Shown one piece after another: positions 1 through 13,939 of a stretch of DNA of 14,487 nt. The stretch spans positions 1 through 14,487 of the forward strand of contig CAYNMN010000049.1 of the NCBI GenBank assembly GCA_964398305.1, in the 5' to 3' direction. Within the stretch, counting starts at the first letter, position 1. Each line of letters starts with the position of its first letter. This stretch comes from an uncultured Oscillospiraceae bacterium (GTDB taxonomy: Bacteria; Bacillota; Clostridia; Oscillospirales; Oscillospiraceae). The notes under the pieces were generated by a model, which saw only the letters and a program-made list of their open reading frames with translations, made no database searches and had not been told where the DNA came from. A program made the position numbers and the translations under genes.

Positions 1-243
1 GCCGCCGACCGTGAGCGGAATGAATATCTGCGACGCCGCGCGGCGCAGGATGTCCGTGAAGATGCCGCGCCCCTCGGCGGAGGCGGTGATGTCATAGAAC
101 ACCAGCTCGTCCGCGCCCTCGGCGTTGTAGAAGGCCGCGAGCTCCACCGGGTCGTCCACGTCGCGTATGCCGGTGAAGTTTTTGCCCTTCACCACTCGCC
201 CGTCGCGGACATCCAGACAGGGGATTATTCGTTTGGTATGCAC
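1..243 (-). CDS. hisF: Imidazole glycerol phosphate synthase cyclase subunit HisF, N-terminal 81 codons (gene continues beyond the window start)
   Basis: Reverse-complement translation from GTG (plus-strand cac at 241-243) reads [55 protein letters not shown]...[10 protein letters not shown], a canonical HisF N-terminus. GGAGG sits 6 nt upstream of the GTG. The ORF track omits it because it is truncated by the window edge. It overlaps the hisA 3' end by 19 nt. Confidence 0.85.
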
Positions 244-959
244 TGCGCGCCTCCTGTTCTTACGGCATCGGCGAGGTCCACCGCGCCGGAGTAATATGCC
301 TTGCCGATTATCAGCGCCGCCGCGCCGGTCTCCCTCACGCGGCGCACGTCCTCCGCGCAGCCCACGCCGCCGGAGGCGACGATGCTCGCGTCCACGCTCC
401 TTACGAGCCGCTCAATCGCGGCAAGCGGCGGGCCGGAGAGCGTGCCGTCGGTGTCGATATCGGTGTAAATGAGCGTCCCAACGCCGAGAGCGGCCATGCT
501 TTTCGCAAATTCGTCGGCTCTGAGATCGCTGCCGCGCTCCCAGCCGTGGGTCATGACCAGCCCGTTCCTCGCGTCCACGCCGACGGCCACGCGCGCGCCG
601 TATTTTTCCACGGCGGCGGCGACAAGGTCGGGGTCGCTCACGGCGGCGGAGCCGATTACGAAGCGCCGCACGCCCATCGCGTCTGCGGCGTCGAGGTCGG
701 CCATGCTCCGCAAGCCCCCGCCGAGCTCCACGGCGAGACCGCTGCTTTTGCAGACCGAGGCGATGATGTCCGCGTTCGCGCGCACGCCGGAGCGCGCGCC
801 GTCGAGATCCACCATGTGCAGCATCACGGCGCCGGAGCGGGCGAAGTCGGCGGCGACGGCGAGCGGATCGTCCGCGACCTGACCGGCGGTGGCGAAGTCG
901 CCCCTGACGAGGCGCACGCAGCGCCCGTCCTTTAGGTCTATTGCGGGCAGTATCAGCAT
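225..959 (-). CDS. hisA: 1-(5-phosphoribosyl)-5-[(5-phosphoribosylamino)methylideneamino]imidazole-4-carboxamide isomerase HisA
   Basis: The track ORF 225..1187 has an Arg-rich, non-protein-like N-terminal extension. The real start is taken as the internal ATG at 959 ([22 protein letters not shown]...), preceded by GGGGAGGG 7 nt upstream. HisA/HisF (beta/alpha)8 motifs are present (AIDL.DG, VGGGLRS, SGGVG). It overlaps the hisH stop by 7 nt. Confidence 0.9.
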
Positions 960-1591
960 TTTCCGCCCTCCCCGAGCGCGCAGAAGGCCCGCAGGATGCC
1001 GAGCCCCGTCTCGCCGCTCTTTTCGGGGTGGAACTGCGTGCCGAATACGCTGCCGTTCTGCACGACGCCCGTCACGTCCACGCCGTATTCGCTCGTCGCG
1101 GCGATATATCTCGCGTCGCACGCGGCGTAGAACGAGTGGACGTAGTAGACAAAGCCGCCCTGCTTTGTGTTCGCAAGTATCGGGCAATCGCTCCGCGCAA
1201 TGTCGAGACTGTTCCAGCCTATCTGCGGCACCTTGAGAGAGCTGCCGCGCGCCCTGAGCGCGTCGGAGAGCGAAACCACGTCGCCGGGGATGAGCCCGAG
1301 TCCGGCGTGCTCGCCGAACTCCAGCCCGCGCGTGAAAAGGAGCTGCATTCCCAGACAGATGCCGAGGAAGGGCTTGCCGCGCCCCGCCTCCTCGAGCAGC
1401 GTGGGGACAAGTCCCGTCTCGCGCAGCTTGTCGGCCGCGTCGCCGAAGGCGCCCACGCCGGGGAGGATTATCCGCTCCGCGCTTTTGAGCTGCCGCGCGT
1501 CGCTTGTTATCACGCTCTCGGCGCCGATGGCGGCAAGAGAGCAGGAGAGGGAAAAGAGATTTCCGACCCCGTAATCCACTATTGCCGTCAT
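953..1591 (-). CDS. hisH: Imidazole glycerol phosphate synthase glutamine amidotransferase subunit HisH
   Basis: 212 aa beginning MTAIVDYGVGNLFS, with class-I glutamine amidotransferase motifs (LPGVGAFG, GICLGMQLL, HPEKS). It sits between hisB and hisA. Confidence 0.9.
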   Translation of the reverse strand: MTAIVDYGVGNLFSLSCSLAAIGAESVITSDARQLKSAERIILPGVGAFGDAADKLRETGLVPTLLEEAGRGKPFLGICLGMQLLFTRGLEFGEHAGLGLIPGDVVSLSDALRARGSSLKVPQIGWNSLDIARSDCPILANTKQGGFVYYVHSFYAACDARYIAATSEYGVDVTGVVQNGSVFGTQFHPEKSGETGLGILRAFCALGEGGKC

Positions 1592-2181
1592 AGGTCGAGC
1601 AGCCCCTTCGTGGAGGGCGCCTCGCCCGCCGCGCGCGGGTCGGGGGAGCAGGCCTCGTCGAGCGCGTGCGCGAGCGCCTTGAACGCCGCCTCGATGATGT
1701 GATGGCTGTTCACGCCCGCAAGCTGCCGCAGGTGGATGCCTGCGCCGAGCGTGCGCGCGAGCGCCTGCATGAACTCCGCGACGAGCTCCGTGTCAAAGTC
1801 GAATACCCTCTGCGAGGGGGTGGCGATGTCGCTGCCGTACCATGCCCGTCCGCCGATGTCCACGGCGGCGAGGACGAGCGCGTCGTCCATCGGGATGACG
1901 GCGCTGCCGTAGCGCTTCACTCCGAGTCTTTCGCCCAGCGCCTCGCGGAAGGCGCTGCCGAGCGCCATCGCGCAGTCCTCCACCGTGTGGTGATAGCCGG
2001 TCTTTACGTCGCCGGCGCAGCTTATTTCCAGATCGAAGCGTCCGTGGCGGGCGAAGAGCTCGAGCATGTGGTCGAGAAAGCCGCAGCCGGTTTCCACGGT
2101 GTATTTGCCGCTGCCGTCCACATTGAGGGCGACCCTGATATCGGTCTCGTTGGAGCGTCGGGAATATTGCGCTTTTCTCAT
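1588..2181 (-). CDS. hisB: Imidazoleglycerol-phosphate dehydratase HisB
   Basis: The track ORF 1588..2355 carries a spurious Arg-rich extension. The start is taken at the ATG at 2181 (MRKAQYSRRSNETDIRVALNVDGSG...), with GGAGG 6 nt upstream. IGPD motifs are present (GCGFLDHML, HHTVED, HHIIEA). It overlaps the hisC stop by 4 nt. Confidence 0.9.
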   Translation of the reverse strand: MRKAQYSRRSNETDIRVALNVDGSGKYTVETGCGFLDHMLELFARHGRFDLEISCAGDVKTGYHHTVEDCAMALGSAFREALGERLGVKRYGSAVIPMDDALVLAAVDIGGRAWYGSDIATPSQRVFDFDTELVAEFMQALARTLGAGIHLRQLAGVNSHHIIEAAFKALAHALDEACSPDPRAAGEAPSTKGLLDL

Positions 2182-3245
2182 GCTTTCGCCTCCAGTATTT
2201 CTTTTGTGGCGCCGAGGAGGGCGTCCATCTGCCCGTCCGTGCCGACGGTTATGCGCACGCAGTCGATTATCCTGGGCGTGTCCCAGTGCCGGACAAGTAT
2301 GCCGCGCTCCTTTAGCGCGAGGTAATACTCTCCGCCGCCAAGCCCCCTCGGGCACTGGGCGAAGATGAAGTTCGCGCGGCTCTCGGTGGTTTTGAAGCCC
2401 AGAGAGCGCAGAGCCTCGGACGCTCTCTCCCGCGTCGCCGCGATCCTTGCCGAGCAGTCGCGGTAATAGTCCGCGTCGCGCAGGGCCGCCGTGCCGGCGA
2501 GCAGGGTCAGGCGGTTGAGGTTATACGGGTTGAAGCTGAACTTGATCTTGTTTATGTCGGCAATTATCTCCGGCGACGAGAGCGCGTAGCCCAGTCTCGC
2601 CCCCGCGAGGCAGAAGGACTTTGAAAACGTGCCGACGATGAGCAGGTTGTCGTATTTTTTCAGCAGCGGGACACAGCTCGTGCCCCCGAAGGCGCAGTAG
2701 GCCTCGTCCACGATCACGAGCCTGTCGCGGTTTGCGGAGAGCAGGCGCTCGATCTCGGAGAGGGGCAGGCACAGCCCAGTCGGCGCGTTGGGGTTGGCGA
2801 TGATCACCGTGCCGCGCTTGTCGGCGTAATCGTCGACGCTAATGCTCCAGTCGGAGCGCAGCGGCACTATGTCCGCCGCAACGCCGAAGAGCTCGGCATA
2901 GACGGGGTAGAAGCCGTAGCTGAGATCGGGGAACGCCGCGCCGTTCGGACACAGGGCCATGAAGCAGAAGGCGAGCACCTCGTCGCTGCCGTTGCCGGCA
3001 AAGACCTGCGAGCGGTCGAGCGAGAAGTATTCGCTCATCGCGCCGCAGAGGTCGGAGGCGGCGGGGTCGCTGTACAGCCGCAGCCGCTCCACCTCGTCCG
3101 CGTTTATCGCCGCCATGACGCCCCGTGAGGGCGGGTAGGGGTTCTCGTTGGTGTTGAGCTTCACCCAACCGCGCGCGTCCCTGGGCTGTTCGCCGGGGGT
3201 ATAGGCCTCGAGCTCGTTGAGCCGGGGCAGCAGGAAGCGGCTCAT
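2178..3245 (-). CDS. hisC: Histidinol-phosphate aminotransferase HisC
   Basis: 355 aa with KLNTNENPY, GNGSDE and the FSKSFCLAGARLGY PLP-lysine region. It overlaps the hisD stop by 4 nt. Confidence 0.9.
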   Translation of the reverse strand: MSRFLLPRLNELEAYTPGEQPRDARGWVKLNTNENPYPPSRGVMAAINADEVERLRLYSDPAASDLCGAMSEYFSLDRSQVFAGNGSDEVLAFCFMALCPNGAAFPDLSYGFYPVYAELFGVAADIVPLRSDWSISVDDYADKRGTVIIANPNAPTGLCLPLSEIERLLSANRDRLVIVDEAYCAFGGTSCVPLLKKYDNLLIVGTFSKSFCLAGARLGYALSSPEIIADINKIKFSFNPYNLNRLTLLAGTAALRDADYYRDCSARIAATRERASEALRSLGFKTTESRANFIFAQCPRGLGGGEYYLALKERGILVRHWDTPRIIDCVRITVGTDGQMDALLGATKEILEAKA

Positions 3246-4528
3246 TTTATCTCACCGCGGCGCGAGAGCACGCTCCTTGCGTGACCCTCGAGCCCCTCGC
3301 GGCGGGCAAAGCGGACTATGTCGTCCGCCACGCTCGCGAGCGCTCCGGAGGAATAATATATGTAGCTTGAGCGCTTCACGAAATCGTCCACGCCGAGCGG
3401 CGATGAGAAGCGCGCCGTGCCGCCGGTGGGGAGAGTGTGGTTCGTGCCGGCGAAGTAGTCGCCGAGCGCCTCGGGGGCGCTGCGGCCGAGGAATATGCTG
3501 CCGGCGTTCACGACCTCGGGGAGATATTCAAAGGGCTCGTCCACGCAGAGCTCAAGGTGCTCCGGCGCGATGGCGTTGGAGATAGCCACGGCCTCGTGAA
3601 TGTCGCCCGTGACAATTATCCTGCCATAGTCGCGGAAGGCGGCGGTCGCAATCTCGCGTCTCGGAAGTATGGCGAGCTGGCGCTCGATCTCGGCGTCCAC
3701 CCTCCGGGCGAACGCGCTGTCGTCGCACACGAGCACGGGCACGGAGCGCTCGCCGTGCTCGGCCTGGGATATGAGGTCGGCGGCGACGCAGCCGGGGTCG
3801 GACTTCGCGTCGGCTATCACGAGGATCTCGCTCGGCCCGGCGATCATGTCGATGTCGACGGCGCCGAACACCTGCTTCTTCGCCACCGCGACGAAGATGT
3901 TGCCGGGGCCGACGATCTTATCGACGCCATTTACGCTCTCGGTGCCGTAGGCGAGGGCGCCTATCGCCTGCGCCCCGCCCATCTTATAGATGGTGTCTAT
4001 GCCGGCGACATGGGCGGCGGCAAGTATCTCGGGGCGGGCCCTGCCGTCCCTTCCGGGCGGCGTCGCCATCACAACGTCCGGCACGCCCGCGAGCTTCGCG
4101 GGGACGGCGTTCATCAGCAGGCTGCTGGGGTAGGCCGCGGTGCCGCCGGGGATATAGAGCCCCACGCGCGCGAGCGGCGTTATCTTCTGGCCGAGCACCA
4201 TGCCCTCCGCGCGGGTGTATTCAAAGCCCTCGCGCAGCTGGCGGCGGTGGAAGTCCTCTATGTTGTCCCTCGCTCTTTTGAGCGTGTCCATAAACTCCGT
4301 CGGCTCGCTCGCCACGGCCTCCGCTATCTCCTCCGCGGAGACAGACAGGGAGTCGGGGCGCGCGCCGTCAAAGCGCTCGGTATAGCGCGCCACGGCCTCG
4401 TCGCCGTTCTCGCGCACATCCGCGAGTATGGCGGCCACCGCCTTTTCCACCTTTTCGTCTGTCTGCTCCGCCGCGCGGGAAAAGAGCTTCACGGCGTCTG
4501 TGCCTCTCGCCTCGATAATCTGTGTCAT
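3242..4528 (-). CDS. hisD: Histidinol dehydrogenase HisD
   Basis: 428 aa with GPGNIFVAVAKK, AGPSEILVIAD, SQAEHG and NHTLPTGG motifs typical of HisD. It overlaps the hisZG stop by 4 nt. Confidence 0.9.
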   Translation of the reverse strand: MTQIIEARGTDAVKLFSRAAEQTDEKVEKAVAAILADVRENGDEAVARYTERFDGARPDSLSVSAEEIAEAVASEPTEFMDTLKRARDNIEDFHRRQLREGFEYTRAEGMVLGQKITPLARVGLYIPGGTAAYPSSLLMNAVPAKLAGVPDVVMATPPGRDGRARPEILAAAHVAGIDTIYKMGGAQAIGALAYGTESVNGVDKIVGPGNIFVAVAKKQVFGAVDIDMIAGPSEILVIADAKSDPGCVAADLISQAEHGERSVPVLVCDDSAFARRVDAEIERQLAILPRREIATAAFRDYGRIIVTGDIHEAVAISNAIAPEHLELCVDEPFEYLPEVVNAGSIFLGRSAPEALGDYFAGTNHTLPTGGTARFSSPLGVDDFVKRSSYIYYSSGALASVADDIVRFARREGLEGHARSVLSRRGEIK

Positions 4529-6084
4529 TTTCCTGCCTCCAGACGGGCGCGGATGTCCTCTATCCTCGCCGCTTTGAATTTACTGCTCGCCTTGTTGGCG
4601 ATGAGCCGCGCCGACACCGGCGCTATCTCCTCGAGCACGCACAGGTCGTTTTCCCGCAGCGTGCCGCCCGTTTCAACAATGTCCACGATGACGTCGGACA
4701 GGCCGATCACCGGCGCGATCTCAATGCTGCCGCTTAGACGGATGATGTCCGCAAGGCGGCTCTTGCTCTCAAGCCAGCGCGAGGCGGTGTTGGAGTATTT
4801 CGTCGCCACGCGCAGCGGCGCGTCGGGGTCGGGGCGGAGATCCGCCTTGCCGGCGCAGACCATGCGGCACTTGCCGATGCCGAGATCGAGCAGCTCATAG
4901 ACCTCCGGGCTGTGCTCGCGCAGCACGTCGCTGCCGGCGACGCCTATGTCCGCCGCGCCGCGCTCTACATATACCGGCACATCCGAGGGCTTGACGAGCA
5001 GATAACGCAGCTTCTTTCCCGGACAGTCGAACACGAGCGAGCGCGAGTTCTCCGTCAGCGCGGGACATTCGAAGCCGAGCCCGGCAAAAAGTCCGTAGGC
5101 CGCGCTGCCGAGACGCCCCTTCGGGAGCGCCACAGTGAGCATATCGTCGCCGCCGGAGGCCGCCTCGTTCCCCGTGAGTCCGCTCAGATATGCCGCAAAG
5201 CCGATAGCCGGCTGCGAGCGGCCCATGCGCCGCATGAGCCCGTCGTAGCGTCCGCCGGAGAGCACCGCGCTGGGCGCGGAGTCTATGTAGCCGTTGAAGA
5301 TCACGCCGTTGTAGTAGTCGAGCACGCCGCCCACCGAGAGGTCGAGCCGCAGATGCGAGTCCGCCTCGCCGCCGCCTATGGCCGCGTAAAGCGCTTCGAG
5401 CTCGCCTACGGCCGCGCGCAGCTCGTCCGTGCAGGCGAGCCTTCCCGCGGCGGCGAGAGTTTCGGGGAAGGGGCCGGAGAGTCGGCACAGCTCCATGAGA
5501 GCGTCGGCCTTTTCCCCGGCGATCTCCGCAAGCTCCGAGGGGCTCTTGCGCGAGAGCGCGTCGAGCGCCGCGCCGGCCGCCGCGTCGTCAAGCCCGACGT
5601 CACGCATCCACGCGGCGGCAAAGCCGACGTGCCCTACGTCCAGCAGGTAGTCGCCGCCCATCTCCGCAAGGCTCCGCAGAGCAAGGCGCAGCACCTCGGC
5701 CTCCCCCGCGCCGTCCTCGCCGCCGATATACTCCAGCCCCGCCTGGCGGATCTCGCGCAGCTCGCCGCTGCCCGGCTCCGTGCGGAACACATTTTCGCAG
5801 TAATAGAGCCGCCGAGCTCCGCCGCCGGGGGGAGTGTTCTTTATTATGCTCAGCGTGACGTCGGGCTTTAGCGCCATCAGCCGCCCGCGCGGGTCGGTGA
5901 AGGTAACTATGCCGTCGCTCTTCAGAAAGCTCCTGTTGCCGTAGTAGGTGTCGTAGGGCTCAAACCGGTCGCTGCTGTACTTTTCGTAGCCCGCCTTGGA
6001 ATAGAGCCTTCTCAGCCGGAGCGTCAGCCGCTCCGCGCCCGAGAGAAATCCGAGATCGTCCATTTGCTTCTCCGTTTTCTTCAT
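4525..6084 (-). CDS. hisZ-hisG: ATP phosphoribosyltransferase regulatory subunit HisZ (res. 1-314) in one continuous frame with short-form ATP phosphoribosyltransferase HisG (res. 315-519); apparent HisZ-HisG fusion
   Basis: Residues 1-314 look like a HisRS paralogue (GRLYYCENVFRTEPGSGELREIRQAGLEYIGG motif-2-like, GGRYDGLM motif-3-like). Residues 315-519 start MLTVALPKGRL at the internal ATG (plus-strand cat 5140-5142) and are short-form HisG (~205 aa). Reading across 5143-5165 shows no stop codon between the two parts (..EAASGGDDMLTVAL..). A likely alternative hisZ start is the ATG at 6063 (MDDLGF...), which has ACGGAG 8 nt upstream. Confidence 0.8.
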   Translation of the reverse strand: MKKTEKQMDDLGFLSGAERLTLRLRRLYSKAGYEKYSSDRFEPYDTYYGNRSFLKSDGIVTFTDPRGRLMALKPDVTLSIIKNTPPGGGARRLYYCENVFRTEPGSGELREIRQAGLEYIGGEDGAGEAEVLRLALRSLAEMGGDYLLDVGHVGFAAAWMRDVGLDDAAAGAALDALSRKSPSELAEIAGEKADALMELCRLSGPFPETLAAAGRLACTDELRAAVGELEALYAAIGGGEADSHLRLDLSVGGVLDYYNGVIFNGYIDSAPSAVLSGGRYDGLMRRMGRSQPAIGFAAYLSGLTGNEAASGGDDMLTVALPKGRLGSAAYGLFAGLGFECPALTENSRSLVFDCPGKKLRYLLVKPSDVPVYVERGAADIGVAGSDVLREHSPEVYELLDLGIGKCRMVCAGKADLRPDPDAPLRVATKYSNTASRWLESKSRLADIIRLSGSIEIAPVIGLSDVIVDIVETGGTLRENDLCVLEEIAPVSARLIANKASSKFKAARIEDIRARLEAGK

Positions 6085-6183
6085 TATGATAACTAATTAG
6101 CATATTATCACATTACCCTATTAAAGTAAAGTGGGAGAAACGTAAAAATTCCGGCTCACGGGCGCGGCCGTTTGTGGATAATA
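6085..6183 (-). promoter_or_regulatory. AT-rich intergenic region upstream of the his operon; presumed his promoter, with a possible spoVAC terminator hairpin at ~6146-6165 followed by a U-run
   Basis: A 99-bp AT-rich island (ttattatgataactaattagcatattatcacattaccctattaaag) in otherwise GC-rich DNA, directly upstream of the hisZ start. On the minus strand, cggccgcgcccgugagccgg followed by aauuuuua sits just after the spoVAC stop. No sigma motifs were rigorously assigned. Confidence 0.3.
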
Positions 6184-6627
6184 CTATATTAGGCTCAAAA
6201 CGTACAGCACCAGCCCGTAAACAACACTCGCGCCTACGCCGTAGACGATCACGGGCCCGGCGATTACGAACATCTTCGCGGCCGTGCCGGTTATGAGCCC
6301 CTCCGTCTTGAACTCAAGGGCGGGGGAAACGACGGCGTTGGCGAAGCCGGTTATCGGCACGAGCGTACCGGCTCCGGCGAACTTCGCCGCGTCGTCATAT
6401 ACGCCCAGCCCCGTGAGCAGCGCGCCGAGGAAGATGAGCGACATCGAAGCCGCCGCGCCCGCATCCTTTTCGGAAAGGCCGAGCGCCGCGCCGCCCGACA
6501 GCAGCGCCTGCCCGGCGCAGCAGATGAGCCCGCCCACGAGAAAGGCGCGCAGCATATCGCCCCATATCGGGGAGGGCGGGGATCTTTCCGCGACGTATTT
6601 TGCGTATTGCTCCCTGGTCATTTTCAT
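6184..6627 (-). CDS. spoVAC: Stage V sporulation protein AC-like membrane protein (SpoVAC/SpoVAEB family)
   Basis: 147 aa. The N-terminus MKMTREQYAKYVAERSPPSP....LRAFLVGGLICCAGQAL matches the SpoVAC signature (..KAFLVGGLIC.IGQ). The remainder is Gly/Ala-rich and hydrophobic, consistent with a channel-like membrane protein. No spoVAD or spoVAE follows it. Confidence 0.6.
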   Translation of the reverse strand: MKMTREQYAKYVAERSPPSPIWGDMLRAFLVGGLICCAGQALLSGGAALGLSEKDAGAAASMSLIFLGALLTGLGVYDDAAKFAGAGTLVPITGFANAVVSPALEFKTEGLITGTAAKMFVIAGPVIVYGVGASVVYGLVLYVLSLI

Positions 6628-7090: not shown

Positions 7091-7415
7091 ATCCCGGCAC
7101 ACCTCCTCGCGTCCGTATCGGGGGATACTGATTGATATGCTGTATTATAGCACGACCACACAAAAATTCTACACAAAAATTACAAGGAATCATCAGACGG
7201 TGTTGGCTTATTATACAATCGGCGTCCCGCCCGAAATGCCCAGATACCGCCGCGGCGCGGCGCACAAAAAAAGTGGTGTTAATCAGACGGCAAGGAAAGA
7301 CAATGACTGACGGAGATAATATACTGGACTACAAATAGTGTTAACCAGACGACAACAGCTGTTTTGGAATGGGGGGATAAGTTTGGTTGTTTTGCAGGGG
7401 GAGGAAAAGCGCGCA

Positions 7416-7520
7416 ATGTGCGGCGAGCTTGCGCGGCATCTGCCGAAGCTGCGGGAGATCATGAAGCTCTCGCAGGGGGAGCTTGCGGAGCTCTGCGGTA
7501 TTTCGCGCACGAGGATATGA
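7416..7520 (+). pseudogene. Truncated XRE-type helix-turn-helix gene fragment (34 codons)
   Basis: MCGELARHLPKLREIMKLSQGELAELCGISRTRI* contains the helix2-turn-helix3 pattern (LSQGELAELCGISRTRI) of XRE/Cro-C1 HTH domains but stops within the domain. It lies in a lower-GC decayed stretch. Confidence 0.35.
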
Positions 7521-7545
7521 CACGGACATCTTCACTGAACCAACA

Positions 7546-7938
7546 ATGAAGGGCAAACTTGGCGTAAATGCCATGAAAGCAGATCATCACCTATACGACC
7601 ATATTCTGTATGATTCCACCAACGAGCGGGATTTTGCAACAGAGCTTGATACGCGAACCGAGGTGGCAGTCTATGTAAAACTGCCGAACGGATTCTATAT
7701 CTCCACACCGGTTGGTAAATACAATCCTGACTGGGCAATTGCGTTCAAAGAAGGCAGTGTCAAGCATATCTATTTTGTCGCAGAGACAAAAGGCTCTATG
7801 AATTCTATGCAGCTTCGTATGGTTGAGGAGGCAAAAATACACTGTGCCAGGGAGCACTTCAAAGCCATTAGCTCTGACAGCATAGTGTATGATGTGGTGG
7901 ATAGTTACGAGAGTTTGTTGAACAGGGTTATGAGATAA
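7546..7938 (+). CDS. PD-(D/E)xK nuclease-domain fragment resembling the C-terminal endonuclease module of restriction-enzyme Res subunits; probable gene remnant
   Basis: The ~130-aa ORF starting MKGKLGVNAMKADHHLYDHILYD contains ...YNPDWAIAF...HIYFVAETKGS..., a classical PD...(D/E)xK arrangement. It is too short for a complete restriction enzyme, abuts the truncated HTH fragment, and sits in DNA with GC well below the window average. Confidence 0.4.
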   Translation: MKGKLGVNAMKADHHLYDHILYDSTNERDFATELDTRTEVAVYVKLPNGFYISTPVGKYNPDWAIAFKEGSVKHIYFVAETKGSMNSMQLRMVEEAKIHCAREHFKAISSDSIVYDVVDSYESLLNRVMR

Positions 7939-8193: not shown

Positions 8194-9183
8194 ATGCCGC
8201 TGCATTTTATACAATCGGATATCGTTGACGTCAGTGCCGACGCGATCGTGAGCTGCGGGAACAGCGCCATGACCGACGAGGGCGGGGTGAGCGGCTGCAT
8301 ATACCGGGCCGCGGGCAGCGCCGTTGCGGACGAGTGCGCGAGGATCGGCGGCTGTGCCCCGGGCGACGCGGTGGCGACCTCCGCCGGAGAGCTCAAGGCA
8401 AGGTATATCATCCACACCGTTGGCCCGATCTGGGACGGCGGGCGCTCAGGCGAGGAGTTCGTCCTGCGTCAGTGCTATAAGCGCGTCCTCGCCAAGGCCG
8501 CGGAGCTCGGCTGTGCCTCCGTCGCCATGCCGCTCATCGCCTCCGGGCGGTACGGGTATCCCCGGGAGCTCGCAAAGCGCGTCGCCTCCGAGGAGATCAG
8601 CGCGTTCCTCGAAGCTCACGGCGACATGGAGATCACGATGGTGCTGAGCGGCGAGGCCGGGCATATCAGCCGCGTGAGGGCGTCCAACGCCGACCTGTCC
8701 ACGTTCATCGCGAGAAACTTTATAGAGCCCGCGAGTGCCGACGAGCATGAGCCGTACTACGACCGGGACAGGACACGGTTCAGCATCTCGCCGCCGGGCG
8801 CCGGGCTCTACAAGACGCTCGACGAGATGCTCGCCGCGCGCAGTAAGCCGTTCAGGGATATGCTCCGCGATCTCATGACCGAGGCGCAGGTGTCGGACGC
8901 CGAGCTGTACAACAAGGCGGGCGTCTCGCGCCAGACCTTCAACAAGATATGGAACCAGGCCGGCTACAAGCCGAGCAAGAACACCGCCCTGTCGCTTGCC
9001 ATCGGTTTGGAGCTCAACTACGACCAGACGCTCGACCTGCTCGGCACGCTGGGCTACACGCTCTCGCACAGCGTGCAGTTCGACATGATCGTGGAGTACT
9101 TCATAAGGCGCGGCTGCTACGATCTCTTCGACATCAACTATTCCCTCGACGATTACGGCGAGCCGCCGCTCGGCCTTGTATGA
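8194..9183 (+). CDS. Macro domain (MacroD/YmdB-type ADP-ribose binding/hydrolase) fused to a C-terminal XRE-family HTH DNA-binding domain
   Basis: The N-terminus carries SCGNSAMTDEGGVSGCIYRAAG (cf. MacroD N.AN..L.GGGV.GAIHRAAG), YIIHTVGPIWDGG and ASVAMPLIASGRYGYP (cf. SIAFPAISTGVYGYP). The C-terminus carries LRDLMTEAQVSDAELYNKAGVSRQTFNKIWN followed by KPSKNTALSLAIGLELNYDQTLDLLGTLGY, the five-helix XRE pattern. A rho-independent terminator follows the gene. Confidence 0.75.
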   Translation: MPLHFIQSDIVDVSADAIVSCGNSAMTDEGGVSGCIYRAAGSAVADECARIGGCAPGDAVATSAGELKARYIIHTVGPIWDGGRSGEEFVLRQCYKRVLAKAAELGCASVAMPLIASGRYGYPRELAKRVASEEISAFLEAHGDMEITMVLSGEAGHISRVRASNADLSTFIARNFIEPASADEHEPYYDRDRTRFSISPPGAGLYKTLDEMLAARSKPFRDMLRDLMTEAQVSDAELYNKAGVSRQTFNKIWNQAGYKPSKNTALSLAIGLELNYDQTLDLLGTLGYTLSHSVQFDMIVEYFIRRGCYDLFDINYSLDDYGEPPLGLV

Positions 9184-9218
9184 GGCTCTCCGCCCGCGCG
9201 TAAAATATAATAATGTAT

Positions 9219-9253
9219 CCCTCGATCGGTCAAACGGTCGGGGGATGTTTTTT
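9219..9253 (+). terminator. Rho-independent terminator of the macro-HTH gene
   Basis: ccctcgatcg-gtcaaa-cggtcggggg forms a 10-bp stem (two G-U pairs) with a 6-nt loop, followed by atg and tttttt (9248-9253). It sits 36 nt after the stop and directly abuts operator copy 1. Confidence 0.45.
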
Positions 9254-9270
9254 GTCAATCGCGGATTGAC
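9254..9270. promoter_or_regulatory. Dyad operator copy 1, GTCAATC-gcg-GATTGAC (7-3-7 inverted repeat), in the promoter region of the vWA gene
   Basis: Perfect 7-bp inverted arms with a 3-bp spacer. The right arm contains a -35-like TTGACC (9266-9271). A -10-like TATCCT lies 20 bp downstream. The vWA start codon is 83 nt downstream. Confidence 0.5.
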
Positions 9271-9352
9271 CACGGTGTGCAGGGAGTGAAGTATCCTATG
9301 ATCACAGCGGTAGAGCGCAGCTCCCGCAGCAATAAAAACGGAGGATGCTATT

Positions 9353-9994
9353 ATGAACGAAAACCTGACAGAGCTTGTGTTCATACTCGACCGCAGCGGA
9401 TCTATGTGCGGCATGGAGGAGGACACCATCGGCGGCTTCAACTCGATGCTCGACAAGCAGAAGAAGGAGCCGGGCGACGCGCTGGTCACCACGGTGCTCT
9501 TCGACAACGAGTACGAGACCCTGCACGACAGAGCGCCGCTGCAGTGCGTGAGAGCGATGACGGCGAACGACTACTCGGCGCGGGGCAGCACGGCGCTGCT
9601 CGACGCGGTCGGCAGAGCGATCTCCCTCATCCGGATCGCCCAGAAGCACACGCCGGAGGCCGAGCGCCCCGGCAAGACGGTCGTGGTCATCATCACGGAC
9701 GGCTATGAGAATTCGAGCCGCGAGTACAGCATCGAGCAGGTGCGCGAAATGATCTCAAAGCAGACCGGGTTGGGCTGGGAGTTCCTGTTCCTCGGCGCGA
9801 ACATGGACGCCGTGCAGGCCGCCGGCAGGATGAACATCCGCGCCGACAGAGCCGCGACCTACCGGCCCGACGGCGCCGGCACCCGCGCCAACTACGACGC
9901 CGTGGACATGGCCATCCGCTACTCCCGAGCCGGACGCCACTTCTCCGACGAGTGGAGGGCGCCGGTCGACGAGCGCAACAACAGGGACTATTAA
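9353..9994 (+). CDS. Small von Willebrand factor A (vWA) domain protein (213 aa)
   Basis: LVFILDRSGSM (MIDAS D-x-S-x-S), GSTALLDAVGRAI and VVVIITDGYEN motifs. GGAGGA lies 7 nt upstream of the ATG. Confidence 0.8.
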   Translation: MNENLTELVFILDRSGSMCGMEEDTIGGFNSMLDKQKKEPGDALVTTVLFDNEYETLHDRAPLQCVRAMTANDYSARGSTALLDAVGRAISLIRIAQKHTPEAERPGKTVVVIITDGYENSSREYSIEQVREMISKQTGLGWEFLFLGANMDAVQAAGRMNIRADRAATYRPDGAGTRANYDAVDMAIRYSRAGRHFSDEWRAPVDERNNRDY

Positions 9995-10000
9995 AACTCG

Positions 10001-10203
10001 GCGCCCGTTTGAGCTCAAGCAGCGCGAGCTCTGCGCCCTTAGGTTCCCTCGCGTATTCCCTGAACATAGTGAAGGGAATACGCTGAGGGACCTTAGGAGG
10101 CGGTGACGTATCGGCAAACACGGCGCCGGGAACATTCACCGAGCTTTGCACGTCGGTAGTATCCCGCCTGAGCTCAAGAAAAAAGTGTCAATCGCGGATT
10201 GAC
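10001..10203 (+). repeat. Structured intergenic repeat copy 1: long imperfect hairpin (10037-10097), AGGAGG, ~90 nt conserved tail, and dyad operator copy 2
   Basis: Begins 7 nt after the vWA stop. The hairpin is cccttaggttccctcgcgtattccct / loop gaacatagtga / agggaatacgctgagggaccttagg (~23 bp with two single-nucleotide bulges and a T-T mismatch). AGGAGG follows the 3' arm directly. It is ~90% identical to copy 2. A 10-bp direct repeat tgagctcaag occurs at 10009-10018 and 10169-10178. Confidence 0.7.
10187..10203. promoter_or_regulatory. Dyad operator copy 2, GTCAATC-gcg-GATTGAC, upstream of the 62-aa ORF
   Basis: Identical 17-mer. TTGACC is at 10199-10204 and a -10-like TACATT lies 20 bp downstream. 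The ORF start is at 10280. Confidence 0.5.
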
Positions 10204-10279
10204 CCGGGCGAGGGACGGATTTGGTACATTATGAATAGAAGCTGCAAAAACGACGGCTCGAAAGAAAGGGAGGACTGCT

Positions 10280-10468
10280 ATGGATGCTTACGGGAAAACG
10301 AAATTCAACACCTGCCTTGACGAATTCGAAAGAACACTGACCGACCTGCGCAGGTGCGGGTCGCTCACAGAGAAGGATCTCCGCATACTCTGCCGCCGGG
10401 TTGAGGAGATGCGCCGGGCCGGCAACGACAGCCCGGACATGACAGGTCGGAGCCGGCTGCGCCCGTGA
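10280..10468 (+). CDS. Small hypothetical protein (62 aa), predicted helical and charged
   Basis: Strong RBS AAAGGGAGG 7 nt upstream of the ATG. MDAYGKTKFNTCLDEFERTLTDLRRCGSLTEKDLRILCRRVEEMRRAGNDSPDMTGRSRLRP. It lies between the two repeat copies, and its stop codon overlaps the start of repeat copy 2. Confidence 0.5.
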   Translation: MDAYGKTKFNTCLDEFERTLTDLRRCGSLTEKDLRILCRRVEEMRRAGNDSPDMTGRSRLRP

Positions 10469-10648
10469 GCCTGCGCCCTTAGGTCCCCTCGCGTATTCCC
10501 TGAACATAGTGAAGGGAATACGCCGAGGGACCTTAGGAGGCGGTGCCGTGCCGACAAACAAGGCGCCGGGAACATTTACCGACCTCTGCACGTCGGTAGT
10601 ATTCCGTCCGCGATCCGAAACAAGAAAAAGTGTCAATCGCGGATTGAC
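10459..10648 (+). repeat. Structured intergenic repeat copy 2: hairpin 10477-10537, AGGAGG, conserved tail, and dyad operator copy 3
   Basis: Aligns to copy 1 with ~11 substitutions and two small indels over ~175 bp. The bulged base in the hairpin changes in both arms (t to c on the left, t to c on the right) but the predicted structure is preserved. Confidence 0.7.
10632..10648. promoter_or_regulatory. Dyad operator copy 3, GTCAATC-gcg-GATTGAC, at the head of a ~430-nt leader preceding the SPFH gene
   Basis: Identical 17-mer. TTGACC is at 10644-10649 and a -10-like TATGAT (5/6 to TATAAT) lies 20 bp downstream. The next plus-strand gene starts at 11115. Confidence 0.45.
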
Positions 10649-11114
10649 CATGACCGTAAACGGATACGGTATGATACGTTTATAAGGTGAGCTACGCGAA
10701 TCTTAGAAACAGAAGATGAGCTATTGCGAACCTTTTTAGCTGAGGCCAAGTAGCCGGTCCGTGGCGTCGATGAGTCGCCGGACCGCGTCGCCGGGAGCCA
10801 TAAACTCCGGCGTGCAGGCCAAGGCCAGGCAACCGGTAGGGTAGATGAAGTTTCCCGAGGCCGCATAAAGTCCGCCCGGACGCGTAAGACCCCTTGTCCG
10901 GAACGTGAAGTGAGCCTGCTGAGGACGGATACCGTCGGACAGTCCGAAAAGCCGGGACACAGTCCCCGCCGGAGGGTCAGCCGACTCAATTCCTTCGCCG
11001 CTCATCAGCGTGGACGCGGCCGACAAATAATCTCCGCTTGACGGCGCTCCGGCCGACAGCGGTACATATAGACCGACGACATTCGCTGCGGATAATGAAA
11101 GGAGTGCTGCACAC

Positions 11115-12215
11115 ATGACAATTACAATTAAAGACGGAGAGCGCGGGGTGTTGACGAGGGACGGGTGCTTCCTCAAACTACTCACACCCGGAAGACACAG
11201 CGGCGACGACGACTGCGAGGTCGAGGTCGTCAAAGCCACCCCCGGAGAGAGATACAACTCTCTCCACCCTGTCGAGCCGCTGCTCGGCGACCCCGAAGCC
11301 TCGAAACAACTGACGACCGTGGATGTGGCGCCCAACGAACTCGTGTTCGTGTCACACTACGGAGCCGCCAGACTCGCCCTCTCCACCGGGCACTATGTGC
11401 TCTGGACACTGGGCCGCGACCTGGATGTCGAACGCGTCGACATCACCGACCCCCTCGTGGACGAGGAGACGCTTTTGCGCCTCACCCCCGCCCTCGCGAA
11501 AAGCCTACTCAACTGGGAAAGCGTCGCCGAATACGAACAGGGACTGCTGTTCGTGAACGGCGTACTCGCAAAAACCCTCGACCCGGGGCGCTACGCCCTG
11601 TGGGCCAACTCCCTCGCCGACTACGAAGTCAAAACCGTCGACCTGCGCCTTCAGCAACTCGACGTGAGCGGCCAGGAGCTCCTGACCGCCGACAAGGTCA
11701 CGGTCCGCCTGAATGTCGTCTGCACATTCAAAGTGACCGACACCCTCCGCGCCGCGACCGGGTTCTCCAACCACGCGGAGCAACTGCGCACACTTGTCCA
11801 ACTCGCACTGAGACGCGCCGTGTGCGCTCTCACACTCGACGAGCTCCTTGCGAGCCGTGAGGATGTCGCCGAGGGCATCCTCTACGAACTAAAGACCCGT
11901 GAAGCCGAATACGCCGTGACATTCACGGACTCGGGAGTGAAGGACGTAATCCTTCCCGGCGAAATAAGGGACATAATGAACTCGGTCCTACTCGCCGAAA
12001 AACGCGCACAGGCAAACGTAATCGTCCGCCGAGACGAGGCCGCTTCCATGCGGAACAAACTCAATTCAGCGCGATTACTCGAAGAAAACCCGACACTAAT
12101 GCGCCTGACCGAACTGGAGTCCATTGAGAGAATCTGCGAGCACGTGGGGTCCCTCAGCGTGGGCGGTAGCGAAAACCTATTGGGCGAGCTTGCGAAGCTC
12201 GCGGGCAAGAGCTGA
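11115..12215 (+). CDS. SPFH/band-7 (stomatin/prohibitin/flotillin-like) domain protein, with no N-terminal transmembrane helix
   Basis: The core reads VDLRLQQLDVSGQELLTADKVTVRLNVVCTFKVTD...EQLRTLVQLALRRAVCALTLDELLASREDV...VKDVILPGEIRDIMNSVLLAEKRAQANVIVRRDEAASMRNKLNSARLLEENPTLMRLTELESIERI. Two N-terminal SPFH-start-like motifs are seen (DGERGVLTRDG..LLTPGRH and EQGLLFVNGVLAKTLDPGRYAL). AAAGGAG lies 10 nt upstream. No hydrophobic segment is present. Confidence 0.75.
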   Translation: MTITIKDGERGVLTRDGCFLKLLTPGRHSGDDDCEVEVVKATPGERYNSLHPVEPLLGDPEASKQLTTVDVAPNELVFVSHYGAARLALSTGHYVLWTLGRDLDVERVDITDPLVDEETLLRLTPALAKSLLNWESVAEYEQGLLFVNGVLAKTLDPGRYALWANSLADYEVKTVDLRLQQLDVSGQELLTADKVTVRLNVVCTFKVTDTLRAATGFSNHAEQLRTLVQLALRRAVCALTLDELLASREDVAEGILYELKTREAEYAVTFTDSGVKDVILPGEIRDIMNSVLLAEKRAQANVIVRRDEAASMRNKLNSARLLEENPTLMRLTELESIERICEHVGSLSVGGSENLLGELAKLAGKS

Positions 12216-12327: not shown

Positions 12328-13113
12328 ATGAAAGGCGCAATACTCGGAGACATAGTCGGCTCAGTCTATGAGCGACACAACACAAAGAGCAAGGCGTTTC
12401 CTCTGTTCTCGCCCGTGGGTCGCTTCACGGACGACACGGTGCTGACGTGCGCCGTGGCGAAGGCGTTAATGAGCGACGACGCCGACGTCGACCTTCTCGA
12501 AGAGCTGACCTACCGGCTGCAGCAGTTCGGGCTGCTCTACCCGCACGCGGGGTACGGCGGAGCCTTCAAGCGGTGGTTCCGCTCCGACTACCCGCAGCCG
12601 TACAACTCCTGGGGCAACGGCGCGCCTATGCGCTGCTCGCCGGCCGGCTTCGTTGCCGGCAGCGCGGAGAAGGCCTACGCGCTCGGCGAGGCCACGGCGG
12701 AGCCCACACACAACCACCCGGAGGGGCTTAAGGCCGCGGGGCTCACGGCGGAGCTCGTCTGGCGAGCCCGCCACGGCGAGAGCCGGGAGACTCTGCGCGA
12801 GAGGGCGTTTGAGCTCTATGAGCTGCCCGCGCTCGACGAGGTGCGCCCGACCTACCGCTTCCACGTCTCCAGTCAGGAGACAATGCCCGTCGCCCTCGCC
12901 GCGTTCTTCGAGAGCACGGACTTTGAGGACGCAATACGCAACGCGATCTCCGTCGGCGGAGACAGCGACACCATCGGCGCCATCACCGGCGCAATAGCCG
13001 AGGCGTACTACGGCGTGCCGGACGAGCTCTGGCGGAAGGCGACACTCTACCTCGACGACTACCTGCTGAAAATCGTTACCGAGTTCTATGCCTTCGCCGA
13101 GGCGCGGAGCTGA
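12328..13113 (+). CDS. ADP-ribosylglycohydrolase family protein (ARH/DraG-like), paralogue 1
   Basis: The start is taken at MKGAILGDIVGS (the track ORF begins 24 nt earlier, but GGGAGG sits 8 nt before this ATG and paralogue 2 starts at the same motif). ARH family motifs are present: FTDDTVLTCAVAKAL, GNGAPMRCSPAGF, THNHPEG and GGDSDTIGAITGAIAEAYYG. Confidence 0.8.
   Translation: MKGAILGDIVGSVYERHNTKSKAFPLFSPVGRFTDDTVLTCAVAKALMSDDADVDLLEELTYRLQQFGLLYPHAGYGGAFKRWFRSDYPQPYNSWGNGAPMRCSPAGFVAGSAEKAYALGEATAEPTHNHPEGLKAAGLTAELVWRARHGESRETLRERAFELYELPALDEVRPTYRFHVSSQETMPVALAAFFESTDFEDAIRNAISVGGDSDTIGAITGAIAEAYYGVPDELWRKATLYLDDYLLKIVTEFYAFAEARS
12653..13033 (+). repeat. 381-bp tract 100% identical to 13479-13859 (internal part of ARH paralogue 1); near-identity extends back to 12591
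   Basis: Direct base-by-base comparison at an offset of 826 bp. The tract 12591-13033 versus 13417-13859 shows only 3 mismatches, all within the first 62 bp. The flanking coding sequence on both sides is strongly diverged. Confidence 0.9.
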
Positions 13114-13150: not shown

Positions 13151-13939
13151 ATGAAGGGTGCAATAATAGGCGACATCGTGGGCTCGATCTACGAGTTCGA
13201 CAATCTGCGTCAGAAGGACTTCCCGTTCTTCGGGAAGAAGTGCAAGTTCACCGACGACAGCGTGATGACCTGCGCTGTGGCCGAGGCGCTCATGAACGCA
13301 GACAGGACCGACGGCGACCTTTTCGAGGGGCTTGTTGAGAGCATGCAGGAGCTCGGCAACGCTTATCCGTACCGCGGGTATGGGCTGCGCTTCGGCGACT
13401 GGCTGGACTCCGACGACCCGCAGCCGTACAACTCCTGGGGCAACGGCGCGCCTATGCGCTGCTCACCGGCCGGGTTCATTGCCGGCAGCGCGGAGAAGGC
13501 CTACGCGCTCGGCGAGGCCACGGCGGAGCCCACACACAACCACCCGGAGGGGCTTAAGGCCGCGGGGCTCACGGCGGAGCTCGTCTGGCGAGCCCGCCAC
13601 GGCGAGAGCCGGGAGACTCTGCGCGAGAGGGCGTTTGAGCTCTATGAGCTGCCCGCGCTCGACGAGGTGCGCCCGACCTACCGCTTCCACGTCTCCAGTC
13701 AGGAGACAATGCCCGTCGCCCTCGCCGCGTTCTTCGAGAGCACGGACTTTGAGGACGCAATACGCAACGCGATCTCCGTCGGCGGAGACAGCGACACCAT
13801 CGGCGCCATCACCGGCGCAATAGCCGAGGCGTACTACGGCGTGCCGGACGAGCTCTGGCAGGAGGCGGCGCTCTACCTCGACGCCCGCCTGCTGAAAATA
13901 GTCAGCGACTTCTACGCCTTCGCCGAGACGAAGGCGTAA
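13151..13939 (+). CDS. ADP-ribosylglycohydrolase family protein (ARH/DraG-like), paralogue 2
   Basis: The start is taken at MKGAIIGDIVGS, with AAGGAGG 6 nt upstream. The N-terminal ~95 aa are about 50% identical to paralogue 1, the middle ~145 aa are identical, and the last ~25 aa diverge again. It lies 37 nt after paralogue 1. Confidence 0.8.
   Translation: MKGAIIGDIVGSIYEFDNLRQKDFPFFGKKCKFTDDSVMTCAVAEALMNADRTDGDLFEGLVESMQELGNAYPYRGYGLRFGDWLDSDDPQPYNSWGNGAPMRCSPAGFIAGSAEKAYALGEATAEPTHNHPEGLKAAGLTAELVWRARHGESRETLRERAFELYELPALDEVRPTYRFHVSSQETMPVALAAFFESTDFEDAIRNAISVGGDSDTIGAITGAIAEAYYGVPDELWQEAALYLDARLLKIVSDFYAFAETKA
13479..13859 (+). repeat. 381-bp tract 100% identical to 12653-13033 (internal part of ARH paralogue 2)
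   Basis: See the paired feature. The identical tracts also generate identical spurious antisense ORFs in the six-frame track (12743..12934 and 13569..13760). Confidence 0.9.

Follow-up and report, generated by a model that had tools for sequence, protein, structure and literature searches.

A macro domain fused to an XRE-type helix-turn-helix: a candidate ADP-ribose-responsive transcription factor and its co-varying operator in Bacillota

Introduction

In every domain of life, ADP-ribosylation is read and erased mainly by macro domains; as far as the searchable literature goes, none of these has been shown to be the ligand-sensing part of a bacterial transcription factor. Here we describe a candidate: a macro domain fused to an XRE-type helix-turn-helix (HTH), encoded in a 14,487-nt stretch of DNA from an uncultured Oscillospiraceae bacterium (contig CAYNMN010000049.1), the whole of which we call the window. 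The functionally closest described regulator is NrtR, a Nudix-winged-helix repressor of NAD synthesis and salvage genes that responds to ADP-ribose. Class II activation by a cI/Cro-type HTH is known from lambda cI at OR2/PRM. Considered as a system, the locus comes nearest to the ARG-centric systems, for which Iyer, Burroughs, Aravind et al. (Viruses 2022, PMC9503650, section 3.8) predicted a role against viral ADP-ribosylation. In the same paper, these are described as having an ADP-ribosylglycohydrolase to which no transferase is coupled, a factor of the Nudix-HTH or WYL-HTH type, and peptide-binding chaperones of the von Willebrand factor A (vWA), SseB or TY kind, with a variable addition of Macro, NADAR and restriction endonuclease (REase) genes, Macro being listed as an accessory enzyme only; a coupled phosphatase is present in about 55% of them, and the hosts are actinobacteria, planctomycetes and proteobacteria. 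A Macro-HTH factor is not mentioned there, nor did we find one in the other full-text literature searched.

The first-pass annotation of this DNA had likened the fusion to NrtR, and the analogy is apt: both are one-component proteins that combine an enzyme fold able to bind ADP-ribose with a DNA-binding domain, and both are associated with genes of ADP-ribose or NAD biology. The sensor here, however, is a Macro domain with no Nudix match in Pfam or NCBIfam, and the DNA-binding domain has the five helices of XRE proteins and no winged helix. The regulon consists of a vWA gene and ADP-ribosylglycohydrolases (ARHs), the promoter geometry suggests activation, and many members keep the catalytic residues of the sensor. 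With the ARG-centric systems, the window shares two ARH genes and the lack of any ADP-ribosyltransferase (ART) or sirtuin domain among the open reading frames (ORFs) scanned with Pfam, as well as vWA and SseB-like genes and a decayed type III REase fragment. It differs in its factor, which is Macro-XRE and not Nudix or WYL, in its lineage, Bacillota, and in that the same Pfam scan of the ORFs gave no phosphatase domain; across the family, the invariant core is the regulator and the vWA gene, ARH being optional, and an operator and promoter architecture are now defined.

The class II arrangement and the cI/Cro-type HTH are shared with lambda cI at OR2/PRM, but the kinship is one of fold and not of sequence, we saw no array of operators for cooperative binding, and the activation proposed here is read from geometry only. 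MacroD, YmdB and DR_2288, the closest relatives of the N-terminal half and equipped with the same ADP-ribose-binding loops, are single-domain enzymes without a DNA-binding module, and in place of their catalytic Asp and His the window protein has Ser and Tyr. DarG similarly joins an N-terminal macro domain to a C-terminal partner-specific domain and takes part in a conflict over ADP-ribosylation; the C-terminal domain here is nevertheless an HTH with a promoter operator and not a toxin-binding one. We rejected a DarTG or antitoxin reading, as no DarT toxin is present, PADLOC matches only the REase fragment and Pfam finds no ART. We class the protein as a putative sensor-HTH one-component regulator of ADP-ribose biology, with a macro sensor for which the literature searched has no precedent.

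Operator and Recognition Helix

The macro-XRE gene predicted in the first-pass annotation was borne out, and its translation contains all three of the signatures named there, GGVSGCIYRAAG, HTVGP and AMPLIASGRYGYP. As also annotated, the gene is followed by a terminator of its own, a hairpin with a T-run, and then by a 17-bp dyad, GTCAAT-N5-ATTGAC (GTCAATCGCGGATTGAC). The dyad had been described as recurring three times after its first copy; the repeats are indeed exact, but the copies are three in all, where 0.01 would be expected by chance (Table 1). Distant loci do not have this sequence but carry, in the same place, a dyad of the same 17-bp shape, wwwT-GTCGC-N7-GCGAC-Cw, situated 62–119 nt upstream of the start codon of a vWA gene and with a TAnnnT hexamer exactly 20 nt past its GACC. 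A generic inverted-repeat search of these loci missed the dyad because of its short arms, and it was recognized by reading the intergenic sequences. In many loci, it starts only 1–5 nt past the stop codon of the regulator, with no terminator between, but where the two genes are 0.3–3 kb apart, it stays with the vWA gene (L011, L015, L032, L035, L040, L049, L050 and L054). A reciprocal search, starting from vWA and covering IMG/VR contigs, found the dyad together with a −10 box at 48 of 66 sites; sorted by vWA similarity, the dyad accompanies nearly all close orthologs (scores above about 300 bits) and no distant paralog (below about 280 bits).

The strongest support for binding between the protein and the dyad comes from the way in which the two vary together. 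Almost all members of the family have a predicted recognition helix of the K/R class, D-R-[KR]-L-F-S-K-I-R, and 109 of the 120 half-sites of that class are GTCGC. The helix of the window protein, S-R-Q-T-F-N-K-I-W, is instead paired with the half-site GTCAAT, and in its closest relative of this Q-type, with Gln at helix position 3 (P0002, helix S-R-Q-V-F-N-N-I-W), the vWA gene is preceded by GTCAAC/GTCAAC; one or both half-sites are likewise GTxAA with the Q-type helices SKQTWYKIM (L020), TKQTFSKIR (L068), SRQHFSKIR (L058), SKQHFSKLI (L097) and SRQHFSKIQ (L122). Altogether, such half-sites accompany 7/7 Q-type and 0/60 K/R-type helices (Fisher p=1.1e-9, a test made without phylogenetic correction). 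In a neighbor-joining tree, the Q-type helices occupy at least four separate positions amid K/R-type neighbors and the change must thus have arisen repeatedly. In the textbook pattern, guanine is contacted by Lys or Arg and adenine by Gln, and the co-variation is, as far as can be read from sequences, the signature of direct readout of the dyad by this HTH. The pairing of protein and dyad proposed in the first-pass annotation is supported, on comparative grounds, by this co-variation and by conservation of the dyad at about 100 sites in a comparison that covered some 100 genomes, and we consider it very probable that the HTH binds the dyad.

Promoter Architecture

The hexamer that follows the dyad has the properties of a −10 box, scoring 4.69/6 over the 101 unique sites, whereas a −35 element is lacking: at spacings of 16–18 nt, the best match to TTGACA scored 1.40/6, below the 2.49 of shuffled sequences. 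An extended −10 TG is present at only about a third of the sites. If the hexamer is taken as −12 to −7, the dyad is centered at −42, and this position, in combination with the fixed spacing and the missing −35 element, is that of a class II activator. Our search of metagenomes for further regulon members with the exact operator of the window gave six matches, all of them unrelated and due to chance, and Rfam has nothing relevant in the window. In L055, the macro-XRE gene itself is preceded, at a distance of about 90 nt, by a second dyad of the GTCGC type (3908–3924), which suggests autoregulation in that locus.

Many of the related loci have a further peculiarity downstream of the dyad: the Shine–Dalgarno (SD) sequence of the vWA gene finds its complement in the segment from the dyad to the predicted start site, or in the TATCCT box (for example L008 7372–7431, L021, L027, L049 6110–6167 and L091 2727–2764). 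Over 42 loci, the predicted mean unpaired probability of the SD was 0.22 in a read-through RNA but 0.77 in an RNA starting 7 nt past the −10 box (Wilcoxon p about 1e-12), and pairing of the SD to the upstream segment was 0.74, compared with 0.50 when the segment was shuffled (p=4e-7). The anti-SD segment is possibly a translational insulation against read-through, the evidence being moderate given the high shuffled baseline. The pattern also supports the −10 assignment. No such effect is seen in the window (0.20 vs 0.25), where the regulator is instead followed by the terminator.

Domains of the Protein

The N-terminal half is of the MacroD/YmdB type, as the first-pass annotation had it. The Pfam Macro profile (PF01661) spans residues 22–131 with E=1.7e-33 (115.5 bits against a cut-off of 22), and the closest solved structures, at 6e-34 to 1e-28, are those of Deinococcus radiodurans DR_2288 (E=6e-34), Escherichia coli YmdB (2e-32) and human MacroD1/2; the best NCBIfam models are O-acetyl-ADP-ribose deacetylase and ADP-ribose-binding equivalogs, with every score far under the equivalog cut-off. 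Whether the catalytic residues are intact had been left to alignment, and they are so only in part. In our alignment of the window protein to YmdB and 106 family members (107 sequences), the window motif N-SAMTDE-GGV-S keeps Asn23 and the GGV loop, but the catalytic Asp is replaced by Ser33 and the catalytic His, four residues further on, by Tyr37. Across the 107 sequences, the first of these positions holds D in 60, C in 39 and S in 5, and the second H in 58, F in 41 and Y in 4, most of them in the combinations D/H (55), C/F (39) and S/Y (3). N23, by comparison, is kept in 101, and the GGV and GxYG loops are retained as well; the phosphate-binding loop G-x-[YF]-G is present in the window protein as S116-G-R-Y-G-Y-P, with G118 invariant and Y120 and G121 conserved. 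The ligand-binding scaffold is therefore conserved and the classical MacroD catalytic pair optional. The domain probably binds ADP-ribose or an ADP-ribosylated molecule.

The full-length AlphaFold model (mean predicted local distance difference test [pLDDT] of 86.6) places the macro domain at residues 1–151, a linker helix at 155–175 and a disordered segment at 184–203, followed by a compact helical module made of a five-helix HTH (220–284) and two additional helices (295–320). Sequence profiles recognize this module weakly. The window protein reaches 17.9–19.9 bits on HTH_26, for which the cut-off is 22, with half of the profile covered, and of its relatives 4/16 reach E of about 4e-6 on HTH_26 and four match HTH_19. 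The best HTHs in sequence searches of the PDB were those of XRE/PbsX proteins and CylR2 at E=0.2–0.3 (phmmer 0.34; profile, CylR2 0.23); prenyltransferases, the top profile matches of the module in the PDB, were judged spurious. The predicted fold is more telling: it has a pLDDT of 94.4, fold searches with it returned XRE-family matches only, and its five helices superpose on solved XRE domains, with no wing. By its predicted structure, the C-terminal half is an XRE-type HTH, in agreement with the first-pass annotation, and profile analysis did not show the region to be anything else. Helices 295–320 matched no solved structure consistently and may, to judge from SinR and DdrO, serve as a dimer interface. 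Apparent stand-alone proteins of the C-terminal module (125–206 aa) were dismissed, since most of them still carry the linker helix and derive from the fusion by truncation or decay. On some long contigs (e.g., P0184, MPLQIVRNDITKMTVDDVALDKKAYKISEKLF), decayed members have lost most of the macro domain and retain the linker helix and the XRE module; these could be natural sensor-less variants or pseudogenes.

Family, Partner Gene and Regulon

The same macro-XRE architecture is found in at least 320 clusters at 90% identity, named in the databases only as "macro domain-containing protein" or "O-acetyl-ADP-ribose deacetylase." In a collection with one genome per species, at least 596 species have the fusion, mostly Oscillospiraceae, Acutalibacteraceae, other Clostridia, Bacillaceae, Erysipelotrichaceae and Negativicutes, and the habitats include gut, rumen and soil, the Bacillota of which contribute thousands of clusters. 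The C-terminal module has 8,313 representatives at 50% identity and is C-terminal in every case. An exact look-up of the window protein itself in the contig index returned nothing. Six loci of the same species, reached through a 97%-identical protein (P0001), have identical synteny, and with a regulatory region 99.9–100% identical, they are uninformative on conservation.

The conserved partner of the regulator is the gene for a small vWA protein with a metal-ion-dependent adhesion site (MIDAS). In four distant loci, the gene of about 215 aa that follows the regulator has no Pfam annotation but is an ortholog of the vWA gene of the window; these orthologs are 49–54% identical, while the regulators of the same loci are only about 40% identical. 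The motifs DxSGS, T and DG are invariant. Of 70 fusion loci, about 50 have the vWA gene downstream of the regulator and in the same orientation, and the partner is absent from 10/10 macro-only control loci. The vWA gene and the dyad, often with the regulator, also occur on 73 IMG/VR contigs classed as viral (L094–L166).

The regulon extends to the removal of ADP-ribose. Extra dyads with the same −10 spacing precede ADP-ribosylglycohydrolase genes (Pfam E=1e-32 to 5e-39) in L028, L049, L061 and L075. In L061 (1280–3106), the gene concerned encodes a 608-aa ARH-SseB-Macro triple fusion, joining in a single polypeptide the ARH and the SseB-like protein that are separate neighbors in the window. 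The third dyad of the window, likewise, heads an SPFH-ARH-ARH-SseB-like cluster, upstream of both ARH genes. Dyads before ARH genes in four genomes and in the window support a signal related to ADP-ribose, although they fall short of proof.

Mechanism and Alternatives

We propose a mechanism that has, in our estimate, a fairly good chance of being right, and that builds on what was computed: domain identities, operator, co-variation, promoter geometry and regulon content. A macro-XRE one-component factor, presumably dimeric because its site is a dyad, would bind the 17-bp GTCAAT-N5-ATTGAC sequence through its C-terminal HTH, in promoters where that sequence is centered at about −42 and where a good −10 box is not accompanied by a −35 element. 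Three units would be controlled here: the vWA/MIDAS gene, the 62-aa ORF, and the cluster of SPFH, two ARH and SseB-like genes. The macro domain would be the input, binding and in many members maybe also hydrolyzing ADP-ribose or an ADP-ribosylated molecule, with its ligand state altering either operator binding or the recruitment of RNA polymerase. The output would be proteins that remove ADP-ribose, the ARHs, together with possible handlers of modified proteins (vWA, SseB-like and SPFH), while the trigger may be ADP-ribosylation by phage or toxin, or the breakdown of NAD. As to the sign, the promoter geometry leads us to expect, on balance, ligand-dependent class II activation rather than repression.

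Several points weigh against this proposal, some of them by favoring another use of the same parts. A ligand-released repressor, one that occludes the −35 region and leaves the DNA once the macro domain binds ADP-ribose, would resemble most sensor-HTH one-component factors and most XRE proteins, which repress; the dyad overlaps the expected site of sigma region 4, and for analogous systems negative regulation was predicted by Iyer et al. 2022 (PMC9503650). A promoter that can be derepressed must, however, be intrinsically active, yet these have no −35 element, their best match scoring below shuffled sequence, and the TG at only about a third of sites; the −42 center and the strict −10 spacing are again the arrangement of a class II activator, and we find repression rather unlikely, though a serious rival. 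Further from our proposal, the macro domain might be chiefly an enzyme, an ADP-ribosyl hydrolase or O-acetyl-ADP-ribose deacetylase, and the HTH might set the expression of the partner or tether the enzyme to DNA with no ligand switch involved. This is suggested by the full catalytic set of Asn, Asp and His kept in 55/107 members, about half of the family and unlike typical degenerate sensors such as the Nudix domain of NrtR, and by the closeness of the domain to the active MacroD/YmdB enzymes. Bifunctional enzyme-regulators are known, among them BirA, PutA and NadR, and tethering could serve the removal of ADP-ribose from DNA near the site, in the manner of DarG. The Cys/Phe combination of 39/107 members and the Ser/Tyr of the window protein nevertheless indicate that the Asp/His pair is dispensable for what conserves the fusion, and an operator that is specific, positioned in a promoter and co-evolving is more than general DNA tethering requires; this alternative seems improbable to us.

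The dyad might also have nothing to do with the protein, being an RNA hairpin (a 3′ stabilizer, a terminator or an element of the 5′ untranslated region) or the site of an unlinked regulator, with adjacency a coincidence. Its position directly behind the regulator stop codon in many loci, where it could form a hairpin of 5–6 bp, and the terminator-like look of copies 2 and 3 of the window on the minus strand are compatible with that. But no U-run follows the dyad on the plus strand; it is located upstream of the −10 box, at the same 20-nt spacing at 101 sites, and thereby outside the transcript of that promoter; and when the genes are apart, it goes with the vWA or ARH gene, not with the regulator. 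On the co-variation of the half-site with the recognition helix of this very HTH and on the fixed −10 spacing, we rejected the hairpin, and the whole explanation appears extremely improbable. Other difficulties for our proposal are of a more specific nature. Q-type helices with His at position 4 show mixed half-sites, such as GTCGCC/GTCAAC, and the recognition code is therefore not simple; phylogeny, as said, is not accounted for in the Fisher test behind it. Neither the window nor most of the other loci have a dyad ahead of the regulator gene, L055 being the one exception seen. That the promoter at dyad 3 drives the ARH cluster across a leader of about 430 nt is an assumption, and for the binding of ligand and of DNA, as for the sign of regulation, the case is one of inference throughout.

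A bolder version of our proposal is possible, though we hold it to be somewhat doubtful: the macro-XRE proteins could be the master activators of an undescribed but widespread response of Bacillota to ADP-ribosylation damage, one that undoes the ADP-ribosylation inflicted by phages or toxins. Binding or turnover of ADP-ribose or of ADP-ribosylated macromolecules would then convert the dimer to a class II activator at −42 and switch on the vWA/MIDAS gene and, in many genomes, DraG-like glycohydrolases as well; the code would be legible from sequence, with Lys or Arg at helix position 3 standing for G and Gln for A; and the anti-SD segment would, in many genomes, hold read-through transcripts untranslated. 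If this version is true, no transcription factor with a macro-domain sensor would have been known before from any organism. The family offers an operator, a promoter architecture, a legible specificity code and a small regulon of vWA and ARH genes, and makes it testable how bacteria sense ADP-ribosylation, be it from phage ARTs, toxins or the cleavage of NAD, and start its reversal. The ARG-centric counter-ADP-ribosylation systems would be extended to Bacillota and to a third kind of sensor, an uncharacterized cytoplasmic vWA protein of about 213 aa would gain a physiological context, and biosensor design would have a natural ADP-ribose-responsive switch.

Other Features of the Window

Table 1. 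Positions of the macro-XRE gene, its parts, the putative operators and the neighboring genes in the window
Feature	Position	Strand	Remarks
Macro-XRE fusion gene	8194..9183	+	329-aa ORF; Pfam Macro; AlphaFold full-length model
Macro domain, MacroD/YmdB type, residues 1–151	8194..8646	+	Pfam, NCBIfam, alignments
Linker helix (residues 155–175, conserved), then variable linker	8656..8805	+	pLDDT <50 at residues 184–203
C-terminal XRE-type module, residues 205–329	8806..9180	+	Predicted structure, fold searches
Predicted recognition helix S245-R-Q-T-F-N-K-I-W253	8926..8952	+	Family consensus D-R-K-L-F-S-K-I-R
Terminator-like hairpin and T-run 3′ of the macro-XRE gene	9215..9253 (hairpin with T-run, 9215–9248)	+	
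Dyad 1 (putative operator), GTCAATCGCGGATTGAC	9254..9270	none	99 nt upstream of vWA start codon
−10-like box TATCCT	9292..9297	+	20 nt past GACC of dyad 1
vWA/MIDAS protein, 213 aa, conserved partner and putative target	9353..9994	+	Pfam; orthologs in distant loci
Dyad 2 (putative operator)	10187..10203	none	
−10-like box TACATT, TGG before it	10225..10230	+	20 nt past dyad 2
62-aa ORF (MDAYGKTKFNTCLDEFERTL) after dyad 2	10280..10468	+	Strong ribosome-binding site AGGGAGG; gene also called in same-species contigs
Dyad 3 (putative operator)	10632..10648	none	
−10-like box TATGAT	10670..10675	+	20 nt past dyad 3
SPFH/Band-7 protein, 366 aa, first gene past dyad 3	11115..12215	+	Pfam
ADP-ribosylglycohydrolase 1	12328..13113	+	ORF from 12304, likely start 12328
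ADP-ribosylglycohydrolase 2	13151..13939	+	ORF from 13088, likely start 13151
SseB-like protein, 129 aa	13958..14347	+	Pfam

PADLOC has no match for the regulator or for the vWA, 62-aa, SPFH, ARH and SseB-like genes, and the 62-aa ORF is without a match in Pfam as well. The stretch of about 430 nt (10682–11114) that separates the SPFH start codon from the −10 box of dyad 3 holds no convincing ORF, no pseudogene remnant and no Rfam family, and its folding is unexceptional (z=−1.68); in contigs of the same species, gene callers place here a 96-aa ORF on the minus strand, which has no Pfam match. The two ARH genes differ in their 5′ parts but share a 300-nt stretch that is 99% identical (12582–12881 and 13408–13707), a pattern that suggests gene conversion, or duplication of a part, in recent times.

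Dyads 2 and 3 are each immediately preceded by one copy of a direct repeat of about 150 nt (10025–10186 and approximately 10465–10631; 90% identity over 145 nt), the second copy of which adjoins the 3′ end of the 62-aa ORF. As RNA, it folds at −77.6 kcal/mol (z=−6.6) into a closing GAGCUC stem, a hairpin with arms of 25 nt and a second hairpin. It has no match in Rfam and no exact one in the JGI metagenomes; as the same-species loci also hold no further copies, we rejected a mobile element. Perhaps the repeat acts as a 3′ stabilizer or an insulator behind both the vWA gene and the 62-aa ORF; alternatively, it could be left over from a local duplication.

On the left side of the macro-XRE gene, positions 7338–7938 have the appearance of a decayed restriction-modification remnant, in which a truncated XRE-HTH-like ORF (7338–7520, LPKLREIMKLSQGELAELCGISRTRI) runs into a 151-aa ORF. 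The latter is the C-terminal endonuclease domain only of a type III REase (RE_endonuc, 1.8e-36; PADLOC REase_III, residues 862–986 of 989). Further left, the minus strand at 225–6627 is occupied by a histidine biosynthesis operon (hisA/H/B/C/D and a fused hisZ-hisG) and spoVAC, and these housekeeping genes indicate a G+C-rich, spore-forming member of the Clostridia.

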